Shown in pieces: positions 3,081 to 57,909 of a DNA stretch of 64,000 bases (position 1 is its first letter; each line of letters begins with the position of its first letter). The translations under genes and the position numbers were made by a program. The notes under the pieces are model-generated. The model was not told where the DNA came from. It saw only the letters and a program-made list of their open reading frames with translations, and ran no database searches. This DNA comes from Brevinematia bacterium (GTDB taxonomy: Bacteria; Spirochaetota; Brevinematia; DTOW01): the NCBI GenBank assembly GCA_049968435.1, contig JBMFQU010000001.1, positions 609 to 64,608 on the forward strand. The letters run 5' to 3'.

Positions 3081-3618
3081 ATACTTCTGCTGTGAAAACG
3101 AATATTTCAGTATCTTCTTTCTTGTAATCATTTGGAGATAGTCCTGCTTTTATGCAAGTATATTGAAGAAATGTTATTTTATCCCAGTTATGTTCAATAG
3201 CAACCTGCGGTAATAATAATCCTTGGAATGGTCCTCTTCTTACTATTAGTCCGTGTTTGCCGACTTCTATTTCTGAGATTGATTCTATTTTTTTAGGTTC
3301 TGAGAGTATAGAAATTTCAATTTCAATCTGATTTATCTCTTCTTTTTCTAATGGATCGAATCTTGGATCTTTCGTAGCAGAAGAAATAGCAGCATCAACT
3401 ACAAGTTGGGGGAATGGCTTTATTGGGTATATATATCCTATACATCCTCTTAATTCTTTGTTTTTAGTTAGTGTTACAAATACTCCTCCGTGTATACCTA
3501 TTTTCTCAACTATTTTCTTTTGTTTTTCAAGTTCTTGTTTTAGACTAGAATTAAATATTGATTCAATGGAAAGTCTAGCTAATTTTAATATCGCCTTCTT
3601 CTGATCCTTACTTATCAT
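3052..3618 (-). CDS. AMMECR1-domain protein
   Basis: 'LRGCIGYIYP' AMMECR1 signature; 188 aa. Confidence 0.7.
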   Translation of the reverse strand: MISKDQKKAILKLARLSIESIFNSSLKQELEKQKKIVEKIGIHGGVFVTLTKNKELRGCIGYIYPIKPFPQLVVDAAISSATKDPRFDPLEKEEINQIEIEISILSEPKKIESISEIEVGKHGLIVRRGPFQGLLLPQVAIEHNWDKITFLQYTCIKAGLSPNDYKKEDTEIFVFTAEVFSESHLEDQ

Positions 3619-3865
3619 AAGTAAATTTTACTAAAGTATTAAAGAGGTTTCAATGTTTTTAGTCTAAGATTAGAATATAATACTCCAGTTAGTATTTTTA
3701 CTTCTACCTCTAGTAATGAAAGTTAAATATTTTATACCTTTTAGTTAGAGATGTTTTAATTATAACTTCTAAAATAATTTAAGAGATGTGATTAATAATT
3801 ATTCTAATAAAAGGTACCTATAAGAGGCGAAGCTTTCTGATTTATTTATAGTAACAGAGAAGTTT

Positions 3866-3962
3866 CTTAAATTTTTACTTCTATTAGGAGTGAATTTTTA
3901 TATTCTCTTACTTCTAGAAGGTAATTAATAGGAAGATAGAATTTTCCTAACTAATTAGAGGG
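3866..3962 (+). repeat. About 95-bp intergenic repeat module 'cttaa..ttctattaggag..aatttttatattctcttactt.tag.agg..agaattttcctaac.aattagagg'. A second copy lies at 10279-10372.
   Basis: Direct by-eye alignment of 3866-3962 with 10279-10372. Confidence 0.6.
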
Positions 3963-4000
3963 AGATCTTGATAAGAGGGTAAAACCCCTACAAAGGCGGG
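3958..4000 (+). repeat. Repeat module 'agggagatcttgataagagggt' followed by a short hairpin. A second copy lies at 12944-12990.
   Basis: The 22-mer is identical in both copies. The downstream GGGT..ACCC hairpin stems differ between the two copies. Confidence 0.6.
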
Positions 4001-4086
4001 TGAGCGGGAAGCAAAAAGTAAGTTTCTCAAACTTCTTAAAAAGCAGTTCTTAACTCTATTAAAGGGGAGAAGGAGAGGTACTCTGT

Positions 4087-4103
4087 AGGAGGCGAAGCCT
4101 CCT
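4087..4103 (+). repeat. REP-like palindromic hairpin 'aggaggcgaagcctcct', containing a GCGAAGC mini-hairpin core.
   Basis: Perfect inverted repeat seen in the sequence. Variants lie at 3828-3840, 10218-10234, 10383-10401, 12856-12877, 48511-48540 (inverted) and 57528-57545 (inverted). Confidence 0.6.
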
Positions 4104-4203
4104 CTGGAATCAAAGGGCGGGAGGGTGGGGCACGCACTAAAAGAAGTTTCTAATTTATCTTCATTATTGAAAACTATAAGATTGGGTGATTAGAATTTAG
4201 CTT

Positions 4204-9891: not shown

Positions 9892-10278
9892 AGTAGTATA
9901 AATGTAAAAGTATTTGCTTGTTCTTTTCAAATAGATTGAATTTATTTTGTAAAAATCTTTCTAAATTTATTAAGAATTGAGGCTTTATATTTTCTTACTT
10001 CTATGAAATACTAATAGTATGTGGAATTTTTACAAATCATGGTGTGAATACTAAAATAAATTTCTAAAAATTTCTAAACTTTGTTAGAAATAGAGAACTT
10101 TTTCTTACCAATTTAACAATTTACAGAAAGAGGTTAAGGTGAAGCTTTCTTAAATTACTTACTTAATGGAAGCAGTGAAGGCGAAGCTTACTTTGGAATG
10201 ATTAAGGAGGTATTACTAGGAAGCGAAGCCTTCTGTTGCACTAAAGGGCTTATGGGGAACAAAAAGAAGCTTATAAAA

Positions 10279-10372
10279 TTTCTTAACTTCTATTAGGAGG
10301 TAAATTTTTTATATTCTCTTACTTTTAGTAGGACCTAATATGAATTTAGAATTTTCCTAACAAATTAGAGGT
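10279..10372 (+). repeat. Second copy of the about 95-bp intergenic repeat module (see 3866-3962).
   Basis: By-eye alignment; about 80% identity. Confidence 0.6.
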
Positions 10373-10382
10373 AGGTATTACT

Positions 10383-10401
10383 AGGAGGACGAAGTCTTCC
10401 T
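10383..10401 (+). repeat. REP-like hairpin 'aggaggacgaagtcttcct'. A sister copy 'aggaagcgaagccttct' lies at 10218-10234.
   Basis: Imperfect inverted repeat with a GAA loop. The same stem recurs as a terminator at 46779-46800. Confidence 0.55.
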
Positions 10402-10558
10402 GTAGAACTCAGGGGAGGTTTCTAAAATTCTTAACTTCTATTAGAAGAGTTGAATCTTTGGTTTTAGTAGAAAGAAGAAGTTGAAGATAAGAATATTATT
10501 TACTTGGATAATTTGAAAAATAGTATTATTATAATTTACATTAAATTAGGGGGAGATC

Positions 10559-12685: not shown

Positions 12686-12855
12686 TTTGTTTTACTCTTT
12701 ATTGGAAGAATTAAAAGCGTAGACTTGACTAATCCAAACTGTAACTTTCAGTTCTATCACTAAGAAAGGTAAATTTTCTTATGGAGGTAATGGAAGAAGC
12801 AAAGGCAAATTTTGTTTTTGTGGCTTTCCAATCTTTCCAAATAGTAGGTACTACT

Positions 12856-12877
12856 AGGAGGATGCGAAGCCTTCGCT
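12856..12877 (+). repeat. REP-like hairpin 'aggaggatgcgaagccttcgc', preceded by 'gtaggtactactagg'.
   Basis: Shares 'ggta.gta.tactaggagg..cgaag.cttc' with 10205-10235, 10371-10401 and 48511-48540. Confidence 0.55.
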
Positions 12878-13068
12878 AAGTAGGAGTTAGGAATTTGTAA
12901 TTAGGAATTTGGGAATAGGTGATTGTGGGATAAGTAAAGGGAGATCTTGATAAGAGGGTTGAACCCTCTTAACGCACTAAAGGGTGGGGAAGATAATAAA
13001 AGTATTTTTAAAACACTATTTAAAATTTGTTGTTAGTATTACATAACTAATTTATAATACTGCTAACG

Positions 13069-16262: not shown

Positions 16263-16704
16263 ATTCTACCCCCTTCAAAAGTTCCAAAAACTTTCTAATT
16301 CTTCTTTCAGAGATAATCACAACTTCTCCACTTTTCAATGTAATCTCTAAACAAGGTTTTTTATCAACAACAAACATAATAATATTATGATCTTTAAGAA
16401 CTCCATAAGAAAAGTCTTTTAATTCTGTTTCTTTAATTTGAACAATATCATCAATGCCAAAATAGAAATAAAAAAATCCCATTCTAATACCAACCTTATT
16501 ACCATCAACGCTAACGTAGAAGGTAGAGAGGTAAAAGGTATAAAAAGATACTAAAACAACAAAAAAGATTAGAATCAAAGAAGGATGAACCTCTTCAAGA
16601 AAAACATTTCCTATAGAAGTTTGATAAATAAGAAAGAATACTAAAATAAAATCTAATAAAATAAGAGGTAAATTCCTTATTAAAATAAACCTAGTATATT
16701 TCAT
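16246..16704 (-). CDS. Membrane protein with a bacterial PH (bPH_2/YdbT-like) domain
   Basis: Two N-terminal TM helices followed by about 80 aa with a PH-like beta-sandwich pattern. Overlaps both neighbours. Confidence 0.45.
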   Translation of the reverse strand: MKYTRFILIRNLPLILLDFILVFFLIYQTSIGNVFLEEVHPSLILIFFVVLVSFYTFYLSTFYVSVDGNKVGIRMGFFYFYFGIDDIVQIKETELKDFSYGVLKDHNIIMFVVDKKPCLEITLKSGEVVIISERRIRKFLELLKGVEYGRKS

Positions 16705-17540
16705 AAACTTCCTCTATACAATACTTCAACAATTTTGCATGTTTGTTTACCTTCTTTAACATCATGGACTCTTATAATAGAAGCACCATTCATAAGAGCA
16801 ACTGTATTTAGAGCTATAGTTCCTGTTAATCTCTCTTCAATAGGTACATTAAGAATACCCCCTACAATAGATTTTCTAGATAAACCAACCAATATAGGTT
16901 TTTTAAGTTGTTTAAGTTCGGCAAGTCTTCGTATTATAGAAATGTTATGTTCAAGCTTTTTACCAAAACCTATTCCAGGATCAATAATTATTTTGCTAGG
17001 ATCAACACCGAAGCTTTCAAATTTTTCTATTCTTTCTCTTAAAAACTCAGTTATTTCTCTAACAACATCTTTATACTCAGGGTTATCTTGCATACTCTTA
17101 GGAGTACCCTTTATATGCATAAGTATAATTGGAACATTATAATCTCTTATAACCCTTATCATATCTTGATCAAAAGTACCAGCAGAAATGTCATTCACAA
17201 TATCAGCACCATTTTCTATTGCTTGTTTCGCAACTTGTGATTTATAGGTATCAACCGAAATAGGTATATTTGGGAAATTTTTTCTTATTTCTCTAATTGC
17301 CGGAATAACTCTCCTTAATTCTTCTTCTAAATTTACTGGATCAGAACCAGGTCTTGTAGATTCGCCTCCTATATCAATTATATCAACTTCATCTTGAATC
17401 ATCTTACTAACAACATTAATTAGATCATCAAGTTTAACCCTGCTACCTTCAAAGAAAGAATCAGGTGTAACATTAATAATACCCATACAGTACTTATGAG
17501 ATGAGAAATCAAATTCTTTACCCCTAATAACTAAACTCAT
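16701..17540 (-). CDS. folP: Dihydropteroate synthase
   Basis: 'GIINVTPDSFFEG' and 'IDIGGESTRPGS' pterin-binding signatures. Confidence 0.85.
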   Translation of the reverse strand: MSLVIRGKEFDFSSHKYCMGIINVTPDSFFEGSRVKLDDLINVVSKMIQDEVDIIDIGGESTRPGSDPVNLEEELRRVIPAIREIRKNFPNIPISVDTYKSQVAKQAIENGADIVNDISAGTFDQDMIRVIRDYNVPIILMHIKGTPKSMQDNPEYKDVVREITEFLRERIEKFESFGVDPSKIIIDPGIGFGKKLEHNISIIRRLAELKQLKKPILVGLSRKSIVGGILNVPIEERLTGTIALNTVALMNGASIIRVHDVKEGKQTCKIVEVLYRGSL

Positions 17541-36416: not shown

Positions 36417-36593
36417 TACTATATATTTTTCGGAAAAATAGTTTAATTAAAGAACTTTAACCAATTTAAAAGTTATAAACTACCTTTAGGTCAGTGAAAG
36501 ATAAACACTCACTACTTTAATCAGAAAGTAAAACTTTTATCTATTATAATAGGAGCTAGGAATTATTTAAGAAACCTCCTTTTGTTACCCACC

Positions 36594-36695
36594 CTTAAGT
36601 TCTACAATTAGAGATGTTAAAAAGTTTAGGAAAATAATAGGAGGAAGGAATTTTTAAGGAATTCCTTTTGCTTTTACCATGCTCTTAAGCGTCTA
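36594..36695 (+). repeat. About 100-bp repeat module, copy 1. It is about 95% identical to 57426-57528 and contains a 12-nt palindrome AAGGAATTCCTT.
   Basis: Direct alignment of the two copies. Confidence 0.7.
36645..36675 (+). terminator. Hairpin 'aaggaatt-tttaagg-aattcctt' followed by a T-rich tract, a candidate intrinsic terminator inside the repeat module.
   Basis: 8-bp AU-rich stem and 7-nt loop, then 'ttgctttt'. An identical structure lies at 57477-57507. Confidence 0.35.
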
Positions 36696-36883
36696 TAGGA
36701 AGCTACACACTCTTTTAATTAACTCTTATTAGAATCTTTCCTCAATATCCAATTGAAGGTTTAATCCTCTTTTAGAAATTACTTTTAGTAATTCTACTCT
36801 AACTGTTTGGAATAAGCAGGATGGAATTTTCAAACATATACTGAATTTTGATAAATCACAAATGAAATGTTTATATTTTTCTT

Positions 36884-41432: not shown

Positions 41433-42386
41433 ATGAAAAAAGAGATAGTAATATCAGTGCTAATATATTTTTCAGTAATAATAACAGTATTACTCATAAT
41501 ACCATTTTTATCCGAAAATATTTCAAAAGTATTCTCAGAAAATAAAACACCATACGAAATTTATCACGAACTTGGAAAAGACAACAATGAAGAAACAAAT
41601 ATATCCAATACACTATCAGATTATAGCCCTACTGAATTTATGGAAAAAGAATATACCATACCTACCGAAGAACAAATTCAAGACATTATAGTACCAAAGG
41701 GGAAACCTATGATAACCTTAGTAATAGATGATTACGGTTATTCTCTTGAAGAACCAGTAATAACCTCTATAACATCTAGTATACCAATAACAGTAGCCAT
41801 AATCCCATTTCTAAAATATTCAAAAACAATAAATAATTTAGCCAAAATGTACAACAAAGAGGTAATAATTCATCTACCCATGGAAGCCTACAAATTAAAA
41901 ATAAAAGATACCCCTTACATAAAAAAAGGACAAGACTCTACAGAAATCATAAGAATCTTAGAAAAAGCAACTCAGGAATTAGAAGGAGTAGGAATGAACA
42001 ATCACATGGGATCAGAAGCAACAGAAGACCCAGAGGTAATGGAAACAATAATAAGATTTCTTAAAAGAAAGAATCTATTTTTCTTAGATTCACTAACTAC
42101 TCCAAACTCAGTAGGATATAAAAAAGCAAAAGAAATGGGATTAGTCCCTTTAAAAAGAGATGTATTTCTTGATAATTATCCATCACAATATTACATAGAG
42201 GATCAATTGAGGATGGTAGAAAAAGTGGCTACCAAAAAGGGTTACTGTATAGCAATTGGACATATTAGAGAAAACACTATAAAAACTTTAATGAAATGGT
42301 ACCAAGACAATAAATCTAATTATAGATTTACAACTCTTAAGAATCTTTATGAGGAACTAACCAAATTGGAAATAAGCAAAAAATAA
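41433..42386 (+). CDS. Divergent polysaccharide deacetylase (YibQ-like) family protein
   Basis: 'ITLVIDDYGYS' and 'HLPME' motifs typical of the divergent PDA family. N-terminal TM anchor. Confidence 0.6.
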   Translation: MKKEIVISVLIYFSVIITVLLIIPFLSENISKVFSENKTPYEIYHELGKDNNEETNISNTLSDYSPTEFMEKEYTIPTEEQIQDIIVPKGKPMITLVIDDYGYSLEEPVITSITSSIPITVAIIPFLKYSKTINNLAKMYNKEVIIHLPMEAYKLKIKDTPYIKKGQDSTEIIRILEKATQELEGVGMNNHMGSEATEDPEVMETIIRFLKRKNLFFLDSLTTPNSVGYKKAKEMGLVPLKRDVFLDNYPSQYYIEDQLRMVEKVATKKGYCIAIGHIRENTIKTLMKWYQDNKSNYRFTTLKNLYEELTKLEISKK

Positions 42387-42400
42387 GGGGAAATCCCCTT
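42385..42400. terminator. Bidirectional terminator-like hairpin 'aaggggaaatcccctt'. It is duplicated at 42662-42677.
   Basis: 6-bp GC-containing stem flanked by A/T runs, lying between convergent genes. Confidence 0.45.
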
Positions 42401-42413
42401 AAATATCTTAATC

Positions 42414-42623
42414 TTATTGTTTCTTTTCTTTCAAGGTACAAATGCCAAAAATGCTATAAAGCAAACAGAAACCAGTTATAGCAGTCAAAGCTAAGATACC
42501 ACCTACAACAATAAGCACTATTTGTAAAACACCAGAAGTAAAGAATACTCCTACAACAATTAATATTAAAGCTAATACAGCTCTTATTATCCTATCAAGT
42601 AAACTTTCATTAACCTTTAACAT
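42414..42623 (-). CDS. DUF2892 (YgaP C-terminal-like) small membrane protein, copy 1. ATG start with a GGAGG RBS.
   Basis: Two TM helices and 'TGFCLLYSIFGICT' (GxCxxY-like) motif; 69 aa. Confidence 0.6.
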   Translation of the reverse strand: MLKVNESLLDRIIRAVLALILIVVGVFFTSGVLQIVLIVVGGILALTAITGFCLLYSIFGICTLKEKKQ

Positions 42624-42690
42624 ATATAACCTCCTATATATTCTCTTATTAAGCAAAAAATAAGGGGAAATCCCCTTAAATATCTTAATC

Positions 42691-42900
42691 TTATTGTTTC
42701 TTTTCTTTCAAGGTACAAATGCCAAAAATGCTATAAAGCAAACAGAAACCAGTTATAGCAGTCAAAGCTAAGATACCACCTACAACAATAAGCACTATTT
42801 GTAAAACACCAGAAGTAAAGAATACTCCTACAACAATTAATATTAAAGCTAATACAGCTCTTATTATCCTATCAAGTAAACTTTCATTAACCTTTAACAT
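42691..42900 (-). CDS. DUF2892 small membrane protein, copy 2 (identical)
   Basis: Identical to copy 1. Confidence 0.6.
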   Translation of the reverse strand: MLKVNESLLDRIIRAVLALILIVVGVFFTSGVLQIVLIVVGGILALTAITGFCLLYSIFGICTLKEKKQ

Positions 42901-42922
42901 ATATAACCTCCTATATATTCTC

Positions 42923-43579
42923 TTATTTTGCAAATGATAAAACTTGATTTATAAAAGAATGCTCATCTTGAACTCCAATAGTAATAGAATCTTCTGAATC
43001 GTTTATAATTTGGGTAGGAACACTTTCAATACCCCACTTCATAGCTAAATCAGGAACTTCGTTTGCTTCAATAACTTCAGAAGTTACTTTACCACTTGAA
43101 GCAACTGCAATTCTATTTGCAAGATAAGCAGAAGCTGGGCAATAAGGGCAAGAAGGCGTCACAAATACTTTTATATTAACAGGTTTACTAATAGAACTTA
43201 ATTCTTTAGCCATATTTCCTTCTATGTCATGTGAATCATTAGAAACCATAATCAATGTTTCAACAATTTGACTTGCTTCATATCCTAAAGGTGATCCTCT
43301 GAAAATGATCTTATACCCTTTATCTTCACCTATTGTAACTGTAGGATTAGTCTCAATAGGGATACCTACATCACTAACTTGGACATTTTCTCTGAAATTG
43401 ACTTTAATTTTGCTATTAATCTCACCCAATTCCTTAAAAAATTGTTTAGTAAAATTTACATATTCCTCATTTTCATTTTCACCTGTCCTAAAGTAAACAT
43501 TAACAACAACTTCATTCGAAAGTTCTTGAAACCTCTCTTCAAGGAATTTCCTTGATTCATTATCGATGATTTGCTCCAT
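42923..43579 (-). CDS. Glutaredoxin-like protein disulfide oxidoreductase (two thioredoxin-fold units, one CPYC active site)
   Basis: 'SCPYCPAS' active site in the C-terminal unit. The 218-aa two-domain architecture matches thermophile PDOs. Confidence 0.6.
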   Translation of the reverse strand: MEQIIDNESRKFLEERFQELSNEVVVNVYFRTGENENEEYVNFTKQFFKELGEINSKIKVNFRENVQVSDVGIPIETNPTVTIGEDKGYKIIFRGSPLGYEASQIVETLIMVSNDSHDIEGNMAKELSSISKPVNIKVFVTPSCPYCPASAYLANRIAVASSGKVTSEVIEANEVPDLAMKWGIESVPTQIINDSEDSITIGVQDEHSFINQVLSFAK

Positions 43580-46769: not shown

Positions 46770-46800
46770 ATTTTAAAAAGGAAGACTCGGCCGTCCTCCT
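46770..46800 (-). terminator. Intrinsic terminator downstream of the OMP gene: hairpin 'aggaggac-ggccga-gtcttcct' followed by TTTTT on the minus strand.
   Basis: 8-bp stem plus U-tract read on the minus strand. The stem is the same as in the REP-like hairpin at 10383-10401. Confidence 0.5.
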
Positions 46801-46815
46801 TTATTATAATTTAGA

Positions 46816-47817
46816 TCAAAATAATAATCCTACTTCCAAACCAAATCTAGTTTGATCTTTGTTATCATCTATAAAAGAATTTTCAGCATTTACGTAAGAG
46901 ATCTCCAGCCTAAAAAGTAGAGGTCCTTGAATGTAAGACGGTGTTAGAGTTAATGTTAAACCTTTGTTTTTATCTCCAAGTCCTATAAGGTCTACTCCTT
47001 CTATATCTGGGTTATCTTGGACATATTCTATTCTGCCCGAAATCTTAAAGGGTTTAAAGAAATAAGAAAGATGTGCTGCACCACCAATTGCTGTTGCAGA
47101 TGTACTATCTTTTGGAGATTCTACATATACAAGATCTGCACCAAAGGATAAATCACCAACTATGTAAGAAATTACAGAATTAAACTCTTTGGTGTTAATT
47201 ATTGAACTACCGTCGGGTATATGTATGTTAAAAGATATTGACAAATTATCTATAAGTGTTAGACCAAGAGTAGCTTCAATAGCTGGTTTTAGAGTAGTAA
47301 CAAGAGAATAAAATCCATCGTTTATTCCAATCTTAACGAAAAGCAGATCTGTAGTATAAACTAACCTTACACCACTATGTATTAAGGGTTGCATATTCCA
47401 CACAAGTCCCCTCTGGATATGGTTATTAAGGTAAGTAAAAGCAGATTCATAGCCTATTAAGGTAGACAATTTACCAAACTGTAGAGAAAGACCTCTAATA
47501 GGTACTAACTCTACATAAGCTATAGGCAAAGTACTAAAAAGATCTGTATAAGTTGTAGTCTTTAGTATTCCAATACCTACAACAGGTAAATAATATGCAC
47601 CACCTACCAGCGAAAAACCTATTGGTTCTGCATTCTTTGATATACTTACAAGAGAAGAAGCATCGTAGTATGTTATACCTCTATCATAAATAACATAAGC
47701 TGTTAATGCCACATCTATGTTGATATTACCTATTTTTTCGACATTCTCTAATTCAAAAGCTTGAGATGATAAGCTTATAAAACTGAACAAAATGATTAGT
47801 AGAAACGCTTTTTTCAT
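46816..47817 (-). CDS. Outer-membrane beta-barrel / porin-like protein
   Basis: Signal peptide, alternating hydrophobic beta-strand pattern, and a C-terminal aromatic residue (..GLLF). Confidence 0.45.
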   Translation of the reverse strand: MKKAFLLIILFSFISLSSQAFELENVEKIGNINIDVALTAYVIYDRGITYYDASSLVSISKNAEPIGFSLVGGAYYLPVVGIGILKTTTYTDLFSTLPIAYVELVPIRGLSLQFGKLSTLIGYESAFTYLNNHIQRGLVWNMQPLIHSGVRLVYTTDLLFVKIGINDGFYSLVTTLKPAIEATLGLTLIDNLSISFNIHIPDGSSIINTKEFNSVISYIVGDLSFGADLVYVESPKDSTSATAIGGAAHLSYFFKPFKISGRIEYVQDNPDIEGVDLIGLGDKNKGLTLTLTPSYIQGPLLFRLEISYVNAENSFIDDNKDQTRFGLEVGLLF

Positions 47818-47867: not shown

Positions 47868-48518
47868 TTAGGTCACATTGTAAGTACTTTCCCCATGCTG
47901 AGATTCATCAAGTCCTGTTATTTCATCATCATGTTTTACTCTAAGCCCTACAAATATCTTAATGATAAGAAGTATTAGTAGAGTAACTATAGCATCGTAA
48001 ATTATTACAACACTAACAGCAAAAGGTTGAATAATTAACTGAATAGGATTTTCATAAATTAGCCCTCTACCTAATTCGTTTACTGATGGATCAGCAAAAA
48101 CATCCGTTAGTATAGCACCAAGAATACCGGCAATACCGTGTATACCAAAAACATCAAGAGCATCATCATAACCTAACCTTCTTTTTACTATTGCAACCAT
48201 AAAGTACGGGATAATACCTGCAATTAAACCTATTATTAAAGCACCTACTACATTGACAAAACCTGCAGCAGGTGTTATAGCAACAAGTCCAGCCACCGCA
48301 CCAGAAGCAAGGCCTAGGACAGTAGGCTTTTTAGTGTAAACCCATTCAGTAAACATCCAAGATAAAGCTGCAACAGCCGATGCAGTATTTGTATTTAGAA
48401 AAGCGGCAGATGCAAGCGAGTCTGAAGCTACAACAGAACCAGCATTAAAGCCAAACCATCCAAACCACAATAACCCCGTACCTATGACAACCATAGGAAG
48501 GTTGCTGGGAATAAGCAT
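47868..48518 (-). pseudogene. Ammonium transporter (Amt) C-terminal half only (TM6-11). The N-terminal about 190 aa are absent.
   Basis: It begins at the mid-protein 'GTGLLWFGWFGFNAGS' signature. There is no upstream ORF in about 300 bp. Its start is fused to a REP-like motif at 48511-48540. Confidence 0.55.
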
Positions 48519-48814
48519 CGCCTCCTATAGATTACTACCTTTTATTTCCATGATTTAATCAATATCACTATAAGAAATTTACCAAAAAACCAACAATACT
48601 TTTGCTTATTTTTTAGATAAAAATCTTTAACTTATGCTTAAAATTAAGACAATTAAAATCGATTTAGCTTTTGGTTATTGCAAATTCTAAAATTAAAAGC
48701 TAGAATGTTATTAAATATTTTTCAGAATTACCACTCTAACTTTAGAAAGTTAATTAATTTCCTTGTAGGAAAGACTTATAGAATAATAGTGATATCTTAT
48801 TTTAATTAGGAGCT

Positions 48815-50008
48815 TCAATATACTTTTTTCTTAGAAAGCAAAACTTTCTCAGTATCAACTGCAATAGCAAGTTCCTCGTTGGTAGGCATAACAACAACTT
48901 TTATTTTAGAAGATGGTTTAGAAATAATACCCTCAATTCCTCTTATTGTCTTTTCATTAGCTTCGTCATCTATTTGAATACCAATATCCTCGAGCCCTTC
49001 TAAAGATTTTTTTCTAACAAGTGGAGAATTTTCACCAACCCCTGCAGTAAAAACAATAGCATCAACCTTACCAAGTTCAAAAAAATAAGCACCAATGTAT
49101 TTTCTTATTCTATTACAATACATTTCCATAGCCAAAATTGCTTTTTCATTTCCTCTGAAATACTCATCTTCAATAATTCTCATATCATTTGAAATACCAG
49201 TTATACCCAAAACTCCGCTTTCTTTGTTCAGTATTCTATCCATTTCAGAAGTTGAAATCCCTTCTTTATCCATTATATAAAGAGGTACACTAGGATCAAT
49301 ATCACCTGTTCTAGTACCCATTATAAGACCTTCAAGAGGAGTAAAACCCATAGAAGTATCATAAGATTTACCTTCTCTAACAGCAGTTATACTAGCTCCA
49401 TTACCTAAATGGCAAGTTATCATATTAGAAGAGTTTATATCCAAACCAAGAAATTCAGCAGTTTTATAAGCAACATATCTATGAGAAGTACCATGAAAAC
49501 CATACTTTCTGATTCTATAAATATCGTAGTACTTATAAGGAAGAGCATAAAGGTAGTTATGCTGAGGTATAGTTTGATGAAAAGCAGTATCAAAAACAGC
49601 CACTTGAGGTAAATTAGGCAGAACTTCCCTACAAGCAAGAATACCCGCAAGAGCAGGTGGATTGTGTAAAGGTGCGATTTTTGAAAACTCCCTTATATAC
49701 TCTATAACCTCATTATCAATTAAAACGCTCTCAAAAAATTTGTATCCCCCGTGAACAACTCTATGCCCAATAGCATCAATCTCAAAGTTGTTGTCTTTTA
49801 CTACCCTTACTACTATGGCAATAGCATCCTTATGATCTCTAGCAATTACATCTTCTTTAACTTTATTTCCATTTAGAGTATAACTATGCGTTGCACCGAT
49901 ATTACCTACTCTATCAACTAAACCCTTTACTATCACACTATTACCAGAAGTATCGATAAGTTGATATTTTACAGATGAGCTACCTGAATTTACTACAAGT
50001 ACATTCAT
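48815..50008 (-). CDS. ackA: Acetate kinase
   Basis: 'VLVVNSGSSSVKYQL' N-terminus and ASKHA-fold motifs. Confidence 0.9.
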   Translation of the reverse strand: MNVLVVNSGSSSVKYQLIDTSGNSVIVKGLVDRVGNIGATHSYTLNGNKVKEDVIARDHKDAIAIVVRVVKDNNFEIDAIGHRVVHGGYKFFESVLIDNEVIEYIREFSKIAPLHNPPALAGILACREVLPNLPQVAVFDTAFHQTIPQHNYLYALPYKYYDIYRIRKYGFHGTSHRYVAYKTAEFLGLDINSSNMITCHLGNGASITAVREGKSYDTSMGFTPLEGLIMGTRTGDIDPSVPLYIMDKEGISTSEMDRILNKESGVLGITGISNDMRIIEDEYFRGNEKAILAMEMYCNRIRKYIGAYFFELGKVDAIVFTAGVGENSPLVRKKSLEGLEDIGIQIDDEANEKTIRGIEGIISKPSSKIKVVVMPTNEELAIAVDTEKVLLSKKKVY

Positions 50009-56858: not shown

Positions 56859-57425
56859 TTATAGAGAGTTTATAACTCAAAAATAATTTCTGCACACAAG
56901 ACCCGCCGGCAGATACATATCTTCCTATGTTATAGAGCAACAAAACACCAACAAATTACGTTGGTAACTACTATTATAAAAAAACAATTACATAGTTGCA
57001 AATTAATTTCACTTCTTCAAGAAGAAGTGAAAACCTTCAATATAAAATAGAGCAAAAACCCTTAACTTTCAAAAGGCGAATATAATTATATACAAAATTT
57101 TTCCAATTGTCAAATTCAATAAAAATATCTAAATTCCCAAATCTAAAATTTTTAATCTAAATAATAATTTTCACATACCTTCACTAGAAGGTAGAAATTT
57201 ATTATCTTAATTGAACTAGAAATTTCTTAAGAAAATTCTTCTTGTTTCCCACCCCTCTTTTGATACCTCCCTTTAGTCATCTAAATTAGCCTACATTTCT
57301 TTAAGAAAGTTATTTGCTATTCCTGATAGAAGTTAAGAATTTTAGAAACTTCTTTTTGTTTCTCACCCAACCCGCCCTTAAGCATTTGCAGGAGAGCTAA
57401 CGCCCTCCTACCTAGTAATACCTCC

Positions 57426-57528
57426 CCTAAGTTCTACAATTAGAGATGTTAAAAAGTTTAGGGAAATAATAGGAGGAAGGAATTTTTAAGGAATTCCTTT
57501 TGCTTTTCGCCTGCTCTTAAGCGTCTAC
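57426..57528 (+). repeat. About 100-bp repeat module, copy 2, about 95% identical to 36594-36695. It contains the same terminator-like hairpin at 57477-57507.
   Basis: Direct alignment. Confidence 0.7.
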
Positions 57529-57545
57529 CGGAGGCTTCGCCTCCT
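57528..57545 (-). repeat. REP-like hairpin 'ccggaggcttcgcctcct', the inverted orientation of the 4087-4103 motif.
   Basis: The reverse complement matches 'aggaggcgaagcctcc'. The neighbouring 57361-57425 and 57640-57665 are inverted copies of modules seen at 10205-10260 and 12944-12965. Confidence 0.55.
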
Positions 57546-57909
57546 ATTAGTACCTCCTATTAGAGAGTTAAAAAGTAAAATTTTTAGTTCTCCTAATAGA
57601 ATTTAGGATTTTTAAGAAACCTCTCTTTGTTTACCACCCACCCTATAGTGCCAAGATCTCCCTTTATCTACTGGACATAGAAGATTCTTTATTCCCAAAT
57701 TCCTAATTCCAAACCACTAATTCCAATAAAGTTAATATCTTCCTATTAGCACATTCTTTCAGCAACAACTTCAAAGTTTTAAATCCTATTAGGAAATCTA
57801 CCTATTACCAAATTCTTAATTCCAAGCCTCAAATTGCGATAGATTTAATATTAATAAACTTCTTGAAAAAGAAAATATGTTAGTTAGAAAATAAAAAATG
57901 GAGGCACAA

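Follow-up and report, generated by a model that had tools for sequence, protein, structure and literature searches.

What kind of gene is an ammonium transporter ORF that begins in the middle of the family's fold, directly behind a copy of a dispersed repeat? Such an ORF lies in a Brevinematia metagenome-assembled genome (MAG), in the 64,000-nt stretch of DNA analysed here (the window). The first-pass annotation, made from the letters of the DNA, left two readings side by side: a transporter inactivated by insertion or deletion, or an unusual split or half-size Amt. Our analysis indicates that the ORF is very probably what is left of a gene for an Amt ammonium channel, a pseudogene without function, produced in the likely course of events by transfer of a gene cassette and a subsequent deletion. 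The features of the locus, in the order of transcription, are as follows.

48815-50008, minus strand: acetate kinase gene (ackA), intact; upstream neighbour, outside the amt cassette
48519-48814, no strand: non-coding spacer between ackA and the remnant, 296 bp, 23% GC
48513-48543, minus strand: junction copy of the repeat module, GGTAGTAATCTATAGGAGGCGATGCTT; contains AGGAGG and overlaps the ATG
48515-48527, minus strand: breakpoint interval of 13 nt, AGGAGGCGATGCT
47868-48518, minus strand: 5'-truncated amt remnant of 216 aa with TM6-TM11; corresponds to residues 210-425 in the Hydrogenobacter-type Amt of 425 aa
47852-47872, minus strand: hairpin CCTAAAGC-TTTAC-GCTTTAGG, overlapping the stop codon of the remnant and followed by a T-rich run (from reading the sequence)
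46816-47817, minus strand: BBP2 (OmpL-like) beta-barrel porin gene, intact; downstream partner of amt, with its own AGGAGG, a 6-nt spacer and a signal peptide
46775-46799, minus strand: terminator-like hairpin GGAGGAC-GGCCGA-GTCTTCC followed by TTTTT, after BBP2 (from reading the sequence)

The amt ORF and its flanks

The ORF runs from ATG to TAA over 216 codons and starts with MLIPSNLPMVVIGTGLLWFGWFGFNAGS. Its match to Pfam family PF00909 (Ammonium_transp) is restricted to profile positions 186-399 of 399 (E = 5.6e-72), and residues 195-406 of the E. coli AmtB chain align to ORF residues 4-215 (E = 8e-55), which places the initial methionine at about AmtB residue 192. Both alignments bear out the original description of the ORF as the C-terminal half of an Amt protein, from about residue 195. 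Alignment with full-length Amt proteins, which the same annotation had proposed, gave as closest full-length orthologue a 425-aa protein (P0242, which shares 99% identity with Amt from Hydrogenobacter sp. RSW1); the ORF spans its residues 210-425, and the N-terminal 209 residues are absent. The ORF protein is identical to NCBI entry MGC8766128.1, 'MAG: ammonium transporter [Brevinematia bacterium]', encoded on an 87-kb contig.

In the alignment to AmtB the product falls short of the complete 11-TM fold, with its TM1-5 and TM6-10 halves. Homology to the Amt/Mep/Rh channels (PF00909; AmtB, PDB 1XQE/1U7G; A. fulgidus Amt-1, 2B2F) is strong over TM6-TM11, a stretch that still carries the motif WFGWFGFNAGS and, in GIHG, the second pore histidine. 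The remnant departs from these channels in lacking TM1-TM5 and, with these helices, the conserved aspartate, the first of the two pore histidines and a part both of the Phe gate and of the recruitment site; its invariant glycines are mutated and no P-II gene adjoins it. The pore site of a full Amt (H168 and H318, D160, F107, W148) is incomplete here: equivalents of H318, W212, F215 and S219 are retained. By the established structure of AmtB, it is the absent half that carries D160, H168, F107 and W148 (E. coli AmtB numbering).

The upstream neighbour ackA covers Pfam Acetate_kinase positions 2-391 of 392. On the other side, the region of the stop-codon hairpin is common to the window and Hydrogenobacter sp. 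RSW1, in whose locus (L093) the spacer is homologous. The hairpin after BBP2, which a consensus terminator scan missed, has a stem identical to that of a repeat copy at 10385-10402; by virtue of this shared stem, GGAGG-type hairpin elements flank the segment of truncated amt and BBP2 on both sides.

The breakpoint and the repeat module

Alignment in register with the gene that encodes P0242 (L090) shows where the homology ends. From position 48518 on, nucleotide identity to this gene is 0.90; upstream of the ATG it is 0.13-0.33 per 30-nt bin. The breakpoint is sharp and falls at codon 209/210 of 425. The 296 bp between it and ackA had been described as about 300 bp of non-coding DNA, rightly so: stops in the amt frame occur in the spacer, including a TAG two codons 5' of the ATG, and tblastn found in it no similarity to the N-terminal half of Amt, to GlnA or to P-II. 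Searching all 64 kb with six longer Amt homologues, and with the P-II protein and glutamine synthetase of a related cassette, produced no further tblastn match either. A promoter scan gave no excess of promoter-like sites in the spacer over chance. An apparent homology of the spacer to the repeat region at 3633-3835 (blastn E = 5e-5) was rejected: its Smith-Waterman score of 32 compares with 28.2 ± 2.2 in shuffled sequences (maximum 35), and beyond the junction module the likeness of the spacer to other repeat regions was likewise not above shuffles.

Could the junction have been made by the assembler? The 5' half of amt might have dropped out at 48520-48560 through collapse of a repeat or a chimeric join, given that the sequence comes from a MAG and has a repeat module at the point of joining. 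A second assembly decides the matter. The gene recurs on L002, a 958-bp JGI metagenome contig assembled from another sample, at 97% amino acid identity, with the identical junction string and the same upstream 292 bp with two SNPs. Since 10 substitutions and one indel separate the window from this contig, the two assemblies are independent. Misassembly is excluded because an independent contig has the identical junction and the shared repeat is only ∼30 nt long, too short to collapse an assembly; composition, too, is uniform over the join. We therefore give an artefact practically no credence. The comparison with a related strain, suggested at the outset in search of an intact amt, thus turned up the same truncation instead.

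The junction contains a copy of a short module, GGTAYTAMTAGGAGGCGAAGCCTCC, of which there are seven other copies in the window, in intergenic clusters (at ∼3813, 4075, 10205, 10370 and 12845 on the plus strand, and at 57554 and 57422 on the minus strand). Five of these seven fold as a hairpin of the GGAGGC-GAA-GCCUCC type, the stem varying with pairing kept. The string aggtagtaatctataggaggcgATGcttattcc, quoted by the first-pass annotation as lying immediately 5' of the ATG, is indeed found at 48540-48509 on the minus strand. Its assignment to the repeat family holds at modest significance: the interval 48511-48543 is the best non-member match in the window to an HMM of the seven copies (nhmmer, E = 0.013; next match, E = 2.2), and the core AGGAGGCGANGC occurs exactly at three sites only, the junction among them (within one mismatch, seven sites against 0.15 expected). 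On this profile match and exact core the junction joins the GGTA..TAGGAGGCGAAGC hairpin repeat; the pattern originally written for the family, however, misses the junction even within three mismatches. The 5' GGTAYTAMTA segment of the junction copy shows indels (GGTAGTAATCTATA), and a profile of the 5' part alone gives E of about 100. A hairpin with a complementary 3' arm is absent at the junction copy, which has no stable fold (z = 0.10); the missing arm fits a copy cut within or after the hairpin loop.

The module resembles REP/BIME-like or MITE-like hairpin repeats in being short (∼30 nt), in forming a GGAGGC-GAA-GCCTCC hairpin whose stem changes keep pairing, and in its intergenic clusters, with one copy at the deletion junction. 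Unlike the named REP, BIME and MITE families, the module family is undescribed, and neither a transposase nor a target-site duplication was seen. Compared with Rfam, none of the repeat regions of the window reached a family's gathering score.

The repeat clusters of the window (3600-4110, 9950-10500, 12720-12980, 36500-36800 and 57000-57750) are modular, holding the GGAGGC-GAA-GCCTCC module together with others such as GAGGTTTCTAAAATTCTTAACTTCTATTAG. The largest array adjoins the rRNA operon on its upstream side. One match to the core with one mismatch, AGGAGGCGAATC at 17359-17370 on the minus strand, lies within a coding ORF (16701-17540) and is probably due to chance.

At the junction itself, the 13 nt AGGAGGCGATGCT match the repeat consensus at 11 of 13 positions and the in-register amt sequence AAGATGCTACGCT at nine of 13. 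This patch is probably a microhomology at the deletion junction, inside the repeat, and may have mediated the joining.

The proposal that the repeat supplies both the ribosome binding site and the start codon of the truncated gene was overstated. The repeat-derived AGGAGG ends 2 nt before the ATG, whereas other genes in the window with a strong Shine-Dalgarno (SD) site have spacers of 4-10 nt. The ATG, which is the first after the in-frame TAG, is one mutation away from the GAAG of the repeat and equally one mutation away from the ACG (Thr210) of amt itself. The repeat marks the endpoint of the deletion; as a working start it is at best a candidate.

Selection on the remnant, and other broken amt genes

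Between the window and the second strain, the remnant has accumulated seven nonsynonymous substitutions and one synonymous (omega 2.34, from eight substitutions only), as against a long-term omega of 0.158 measured against Hydrogenobacter. The 7:1 ratio fits neutrality (P = 0.37) and is improbable under purifying selection (P = 0.0002 at omega 0.1 and P = 0.006 at omega 0.2). Divergence is 1.2% in the ORF and 0.7% in the spacer; the ORF has changed at least as much as the spacer. In the second strain, the frame is split by the loss of one nucleotide from a run of five A (window position 48332), although in a homopolymer of a 958-bp contig this may be a sequencing error.

Several replacements strike residues that hardly vary in the family, conservation being judged over 118 homologues. 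G139D (in TM10) is found in the window only and G156E in both strains; each replaces a glycine present in 100% of the homologues. G34S, T171V and L165P are also common to the two strains, A29V and A212T are confined to the window, and A39T to the second strain. The columns changed by G139D, G156E, A29V, G34S and T171V are 95-100% conserved. Since losses are common to both strains, the truncation predates their split. We did not see purifying selection on conserved Amt positions (omega 2.3 and invariant residues replaced, in a small sample). An apparent mosaic structure of the remnant, in which codon identity declines along the gene, was set aside, the counts being too small to interpret.

In sum, an essential part of the gene is lost, homology does not continue past the breakpoint, the lesion is real and evolution is neutral-like, as is characteristic of pseudogenes; with high probability the remnant is a drifting pseudogene. 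Of the two readings first offered, inactivation is the one that the data favour, given the sharp breakpoint, the same junction with a frameshift in the second strain, the omega of ∼2.3 against 0.16 and the loss of invariant residues. Still, the frame is open over 216 codons, with 79% identity to the functional orthologue and a host-like GC3 of 0.21; therefore either the truncation is recent or some constraint persists. With a strong AGGAGG and an ATG in place, the remnant may undergo some translation, though probably into nothing useful.

Amt is built of two halves related by pseudo-symmetry, and the truncation point lies in the loop that connects them, which would suit a split transporter in which a TM1-5 half encoded elsewhere assembles with the present half into a working Amt. 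One organism even has an amt interrupted at this same loop. Its gene is found in two separate assemblies (NCBI GCA_028276465.1, L087; ENA ERZ27247218, L088):

L087 5001-6290 and L088 1961-3250: amt interrupted by a single in-frame TAA (codon 219, within the TM5-TM6 loop), with a GTG one codon later

The organism groups with Hydrogenothermaceae in a neighbour-joining tree of C-terminal halves, and its amt either has become a pseudogene by a recent nonsense mutation or encodes an Amt that is split naturally; the agreement in position is partly a selection effect of having searched with the N-terminal half. An N-terminal half encoded apart from the ORF, the observation that would have spoken for a split gene, was not found by tblastn within the 64 kb, and no N-terminal half labelled Brevinematia was among the best 120 matches in a database of 5.8 billion proteins, in a search that favours proteins of such lengths. 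Together with the neutral-like recent substitutions striking invariant glycines, and the frameshift in the sister strain, these results make a split transporter very improbable.

We assign a similarly slight chance to a stand-alone half-size or neofunctionalised Amt of six TM helices, translated from the SD and ATG donated by the repeat. The open frame with AGGAGG and ATG, the retained equivalents of H318, W212, F215 and S219, and the presence of the remnant in two strains agree with it; against it, the pore has lost one of its halves (H168, D160, F107, W148), omega stands at ∼2.3, a glycine in TM10 has become aspartate, the SD spacer is 2 nt, and no other genuine stand-alone half was seen among the entries examined. 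It is just as doubtful that such a six-helix half-Amt has some activity, be it as a self-associating half-channel like that before the internal duplication or coupled to BBP2; were it active, the repeat family could create new translation starts on truncated genes.

Database entries for Amt proteins of half size (200-280 aa) were considered as a possible family and rejected: where such entries were examined on long contigs, they proved to be neighbouring fragments of a gene that frameshifts or a stop had broken, and short entries rise to the top of database searches through the length bias of the search. Against metagenomes, the matches listed for the remnant protein were distant full-length Amt genes only, sharing the generic WFGWFGFN pattern. 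Neither a split nor a half-size Amt, the second of the original readings, is thus borne out by the 64 kb, by the best 120 matches or by the half-size entries. What the locus shows is genome decay of the ordinary sort rather than a novel type of half-size transporter.

A comparable truncation, independent of that in the window, was seen in a Sulfurihydrogenibium sp. MAG:

L114 6305-6975: 5'-truncated amt remnant with an open frame of 123 aa, directly upstream of an intact BBP2 gene

As in the window, the 5' part of amt is deleted in this MAG and non-coding DNA (∼300 bp) stands in its place. Here and in the organism with the in-frame TAA, amt is disrupted and the downstream BBP2 intact; breakpoints, lineages and types of lesion differ from those of the window. 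Another locus (L103) has BBP2 without any amt, and yet another (L111) N-terminal scraps only. By a comparison of these sequences, loss of amt with retention of BBP2 recurs (window, L114 and L087).

The Aquificaceae cassette and the history of the locus

A P-II gene is missing from the window, as the first-pass annotation had stated for glnK, and a porin gene follows amt; both facts stand, but the arrangement is no oddity. The order with P-II upstream and BBP2 downstream is the normal layout in ∼35 genomes, and glnK is not found after amt here because the P-II gene of the cassette sits upstream. Synteny of amt and BBP2 was found in L001, L003, L087/L088 and L089-L092, and a profile scan of species-representative genomes gave 41 loci (L093-L133), nearly all of them from Aquificota. 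The cassette glnB-glnA-amt-BBP2 is intact in ∼20 Aquificaceae genomes and is present in most Aquificaceae (Hydrogenobacter, Thermocrinis); Hydrogenothermaceae, Persephonella and Desulfurella have the order glnB-amt-BBP2. In the same scan no amt-BBP2 locus was found in Spirochaetota. The gap between amt and BBP2 in the cassettes is often ∼10 nt, and such tight linkage suggests, as far as gene order can, an outer-membrane partner for ammonium uptake. Nothing specific on Amt-porin operons or truncated Amt was found in the literature.

In a neighbour-joining tree of C-terminal halves, the remnant nests inside Aquificaceae, on a long branch beside Hydrogenobacter RSW1. It is 79% identical at the amino acid level to the C-terminal half of Hydrogenobacter Amt, BBP2 is 56% identical, and the non-coding spacer between the two genes is homologous to that of Hydrogenobacter RSW1 (L093). 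The BBP2 protein alone had no match in the genome collection, which does not include the MAG and its close relatives. Compared with the Aquificaceae cassette (Hydrogenobacter RSW1, L093; Thermocrinis, L100 and L108), the window has the same order of amt and BBP2 and a homologous spacer hairpin, but is without glnB, glnA and amt codons 1-209, and its host is an AT-rich Brevinematia MAG to which the third codon positions are fully adapted. Aquificaceae ancestry, as read from these sequences, would imply an old inter-phylum horizontal transfer into the Brevinematia genome. GC3 is 0.21 in the remnant, 0.19 in BBP2, 0.18-0.21 in host genes and 0.37 in the Hydrogenobacter-type gene (L090). A recent transfer was rejected, GC3 being host-like. 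Host-like GC3 with an overall omega of 0.16 therefore suggests to us that the gene was resident and functional for long before a recent deletion.

The sequence of events that we propose starts with a lineage that would have acquired an Aquificaceae-type glnB-glnA-amt-BBP2 cassette horizontally and kept it for long. A deletion would then have removed everything upstream of amt codon ∼209, with one endpoint in a copy of the dispersed module, within the spacer that follows ackA, and the other in the TM5-TM6 loop of amt, probably at the 13-nt patch of chance similarity; glnB and glnA were presumably lost in the same event as the 5' half of amt. BBP2, with its own Shine-Dalgarno site, would have survived, the 3' half of amt being DNA left untrimmed in front of it, and the 216-codon frame would still be open because the event was recent.

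Alternatively, the fragment may have arrived already truncated, an Aquificaceae donor having given only the 3' half of amt with BBP2; the remnant would be non-functional in this case as well. The nesting of both remnant and BBP2 within Aquificaceae is compatible with such an arrival, as are the flanks (ackA and a 194-aa ORF of unassigned identity), which are unrelated to the Aquificaceae neighbours, the lack of a HAD-hydrolase relic downstream and the GGAGG-type hairpin modules at both edges of the segment. The base composition argues the other way. The GC3 of 0.21 and 0.19 equals that of the host, against 0.37 for the Hydrogenobacter-type gene, and yet omega is 0.158; amelioration to this extent in a dead gene would have put stops throughout the 216 codons. 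What the values imply is long purifying selection in an AT-rich host; the donor may itself have been AT-rich and unsampled. Transfer of a segment already truncated is therefore less likely than long residence and recent deletion, and we consider it rather unlikely, if clearly less so than a split or half-size transporter.

The result serves mainly as a correction: entry MGC8766128.1 bears the name 'ammonium transporter' at NCBI but represents one half of a dead gene, and the Brevinematia MAG should not be credited with ammonium uptake on its account. Beyond this, an Aquificaceae-type amt-BBP2 segment appears to have moved into a hot-spring relative of the spirochaetes, amt decays repeatedly while its partner porin BBP2 is kept, and a short hairpin repeat marks the endpoint of a deletion. 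The transfer, the recurrent decay and the repeat endpoint are mildly useful observations that leave current understanding unchanged.

Elsewhere in the window, a 277-bp stretch is perfectly duplicated in tandem at positions 42373-42926 (100% identity), giving two copies of an ORF for an 80-aa membrane protein (42414-42656 and 42691-42933, both on the minus strand) with residue 2 as the only difference; either the duplication is very recent or the assembly is at fault.
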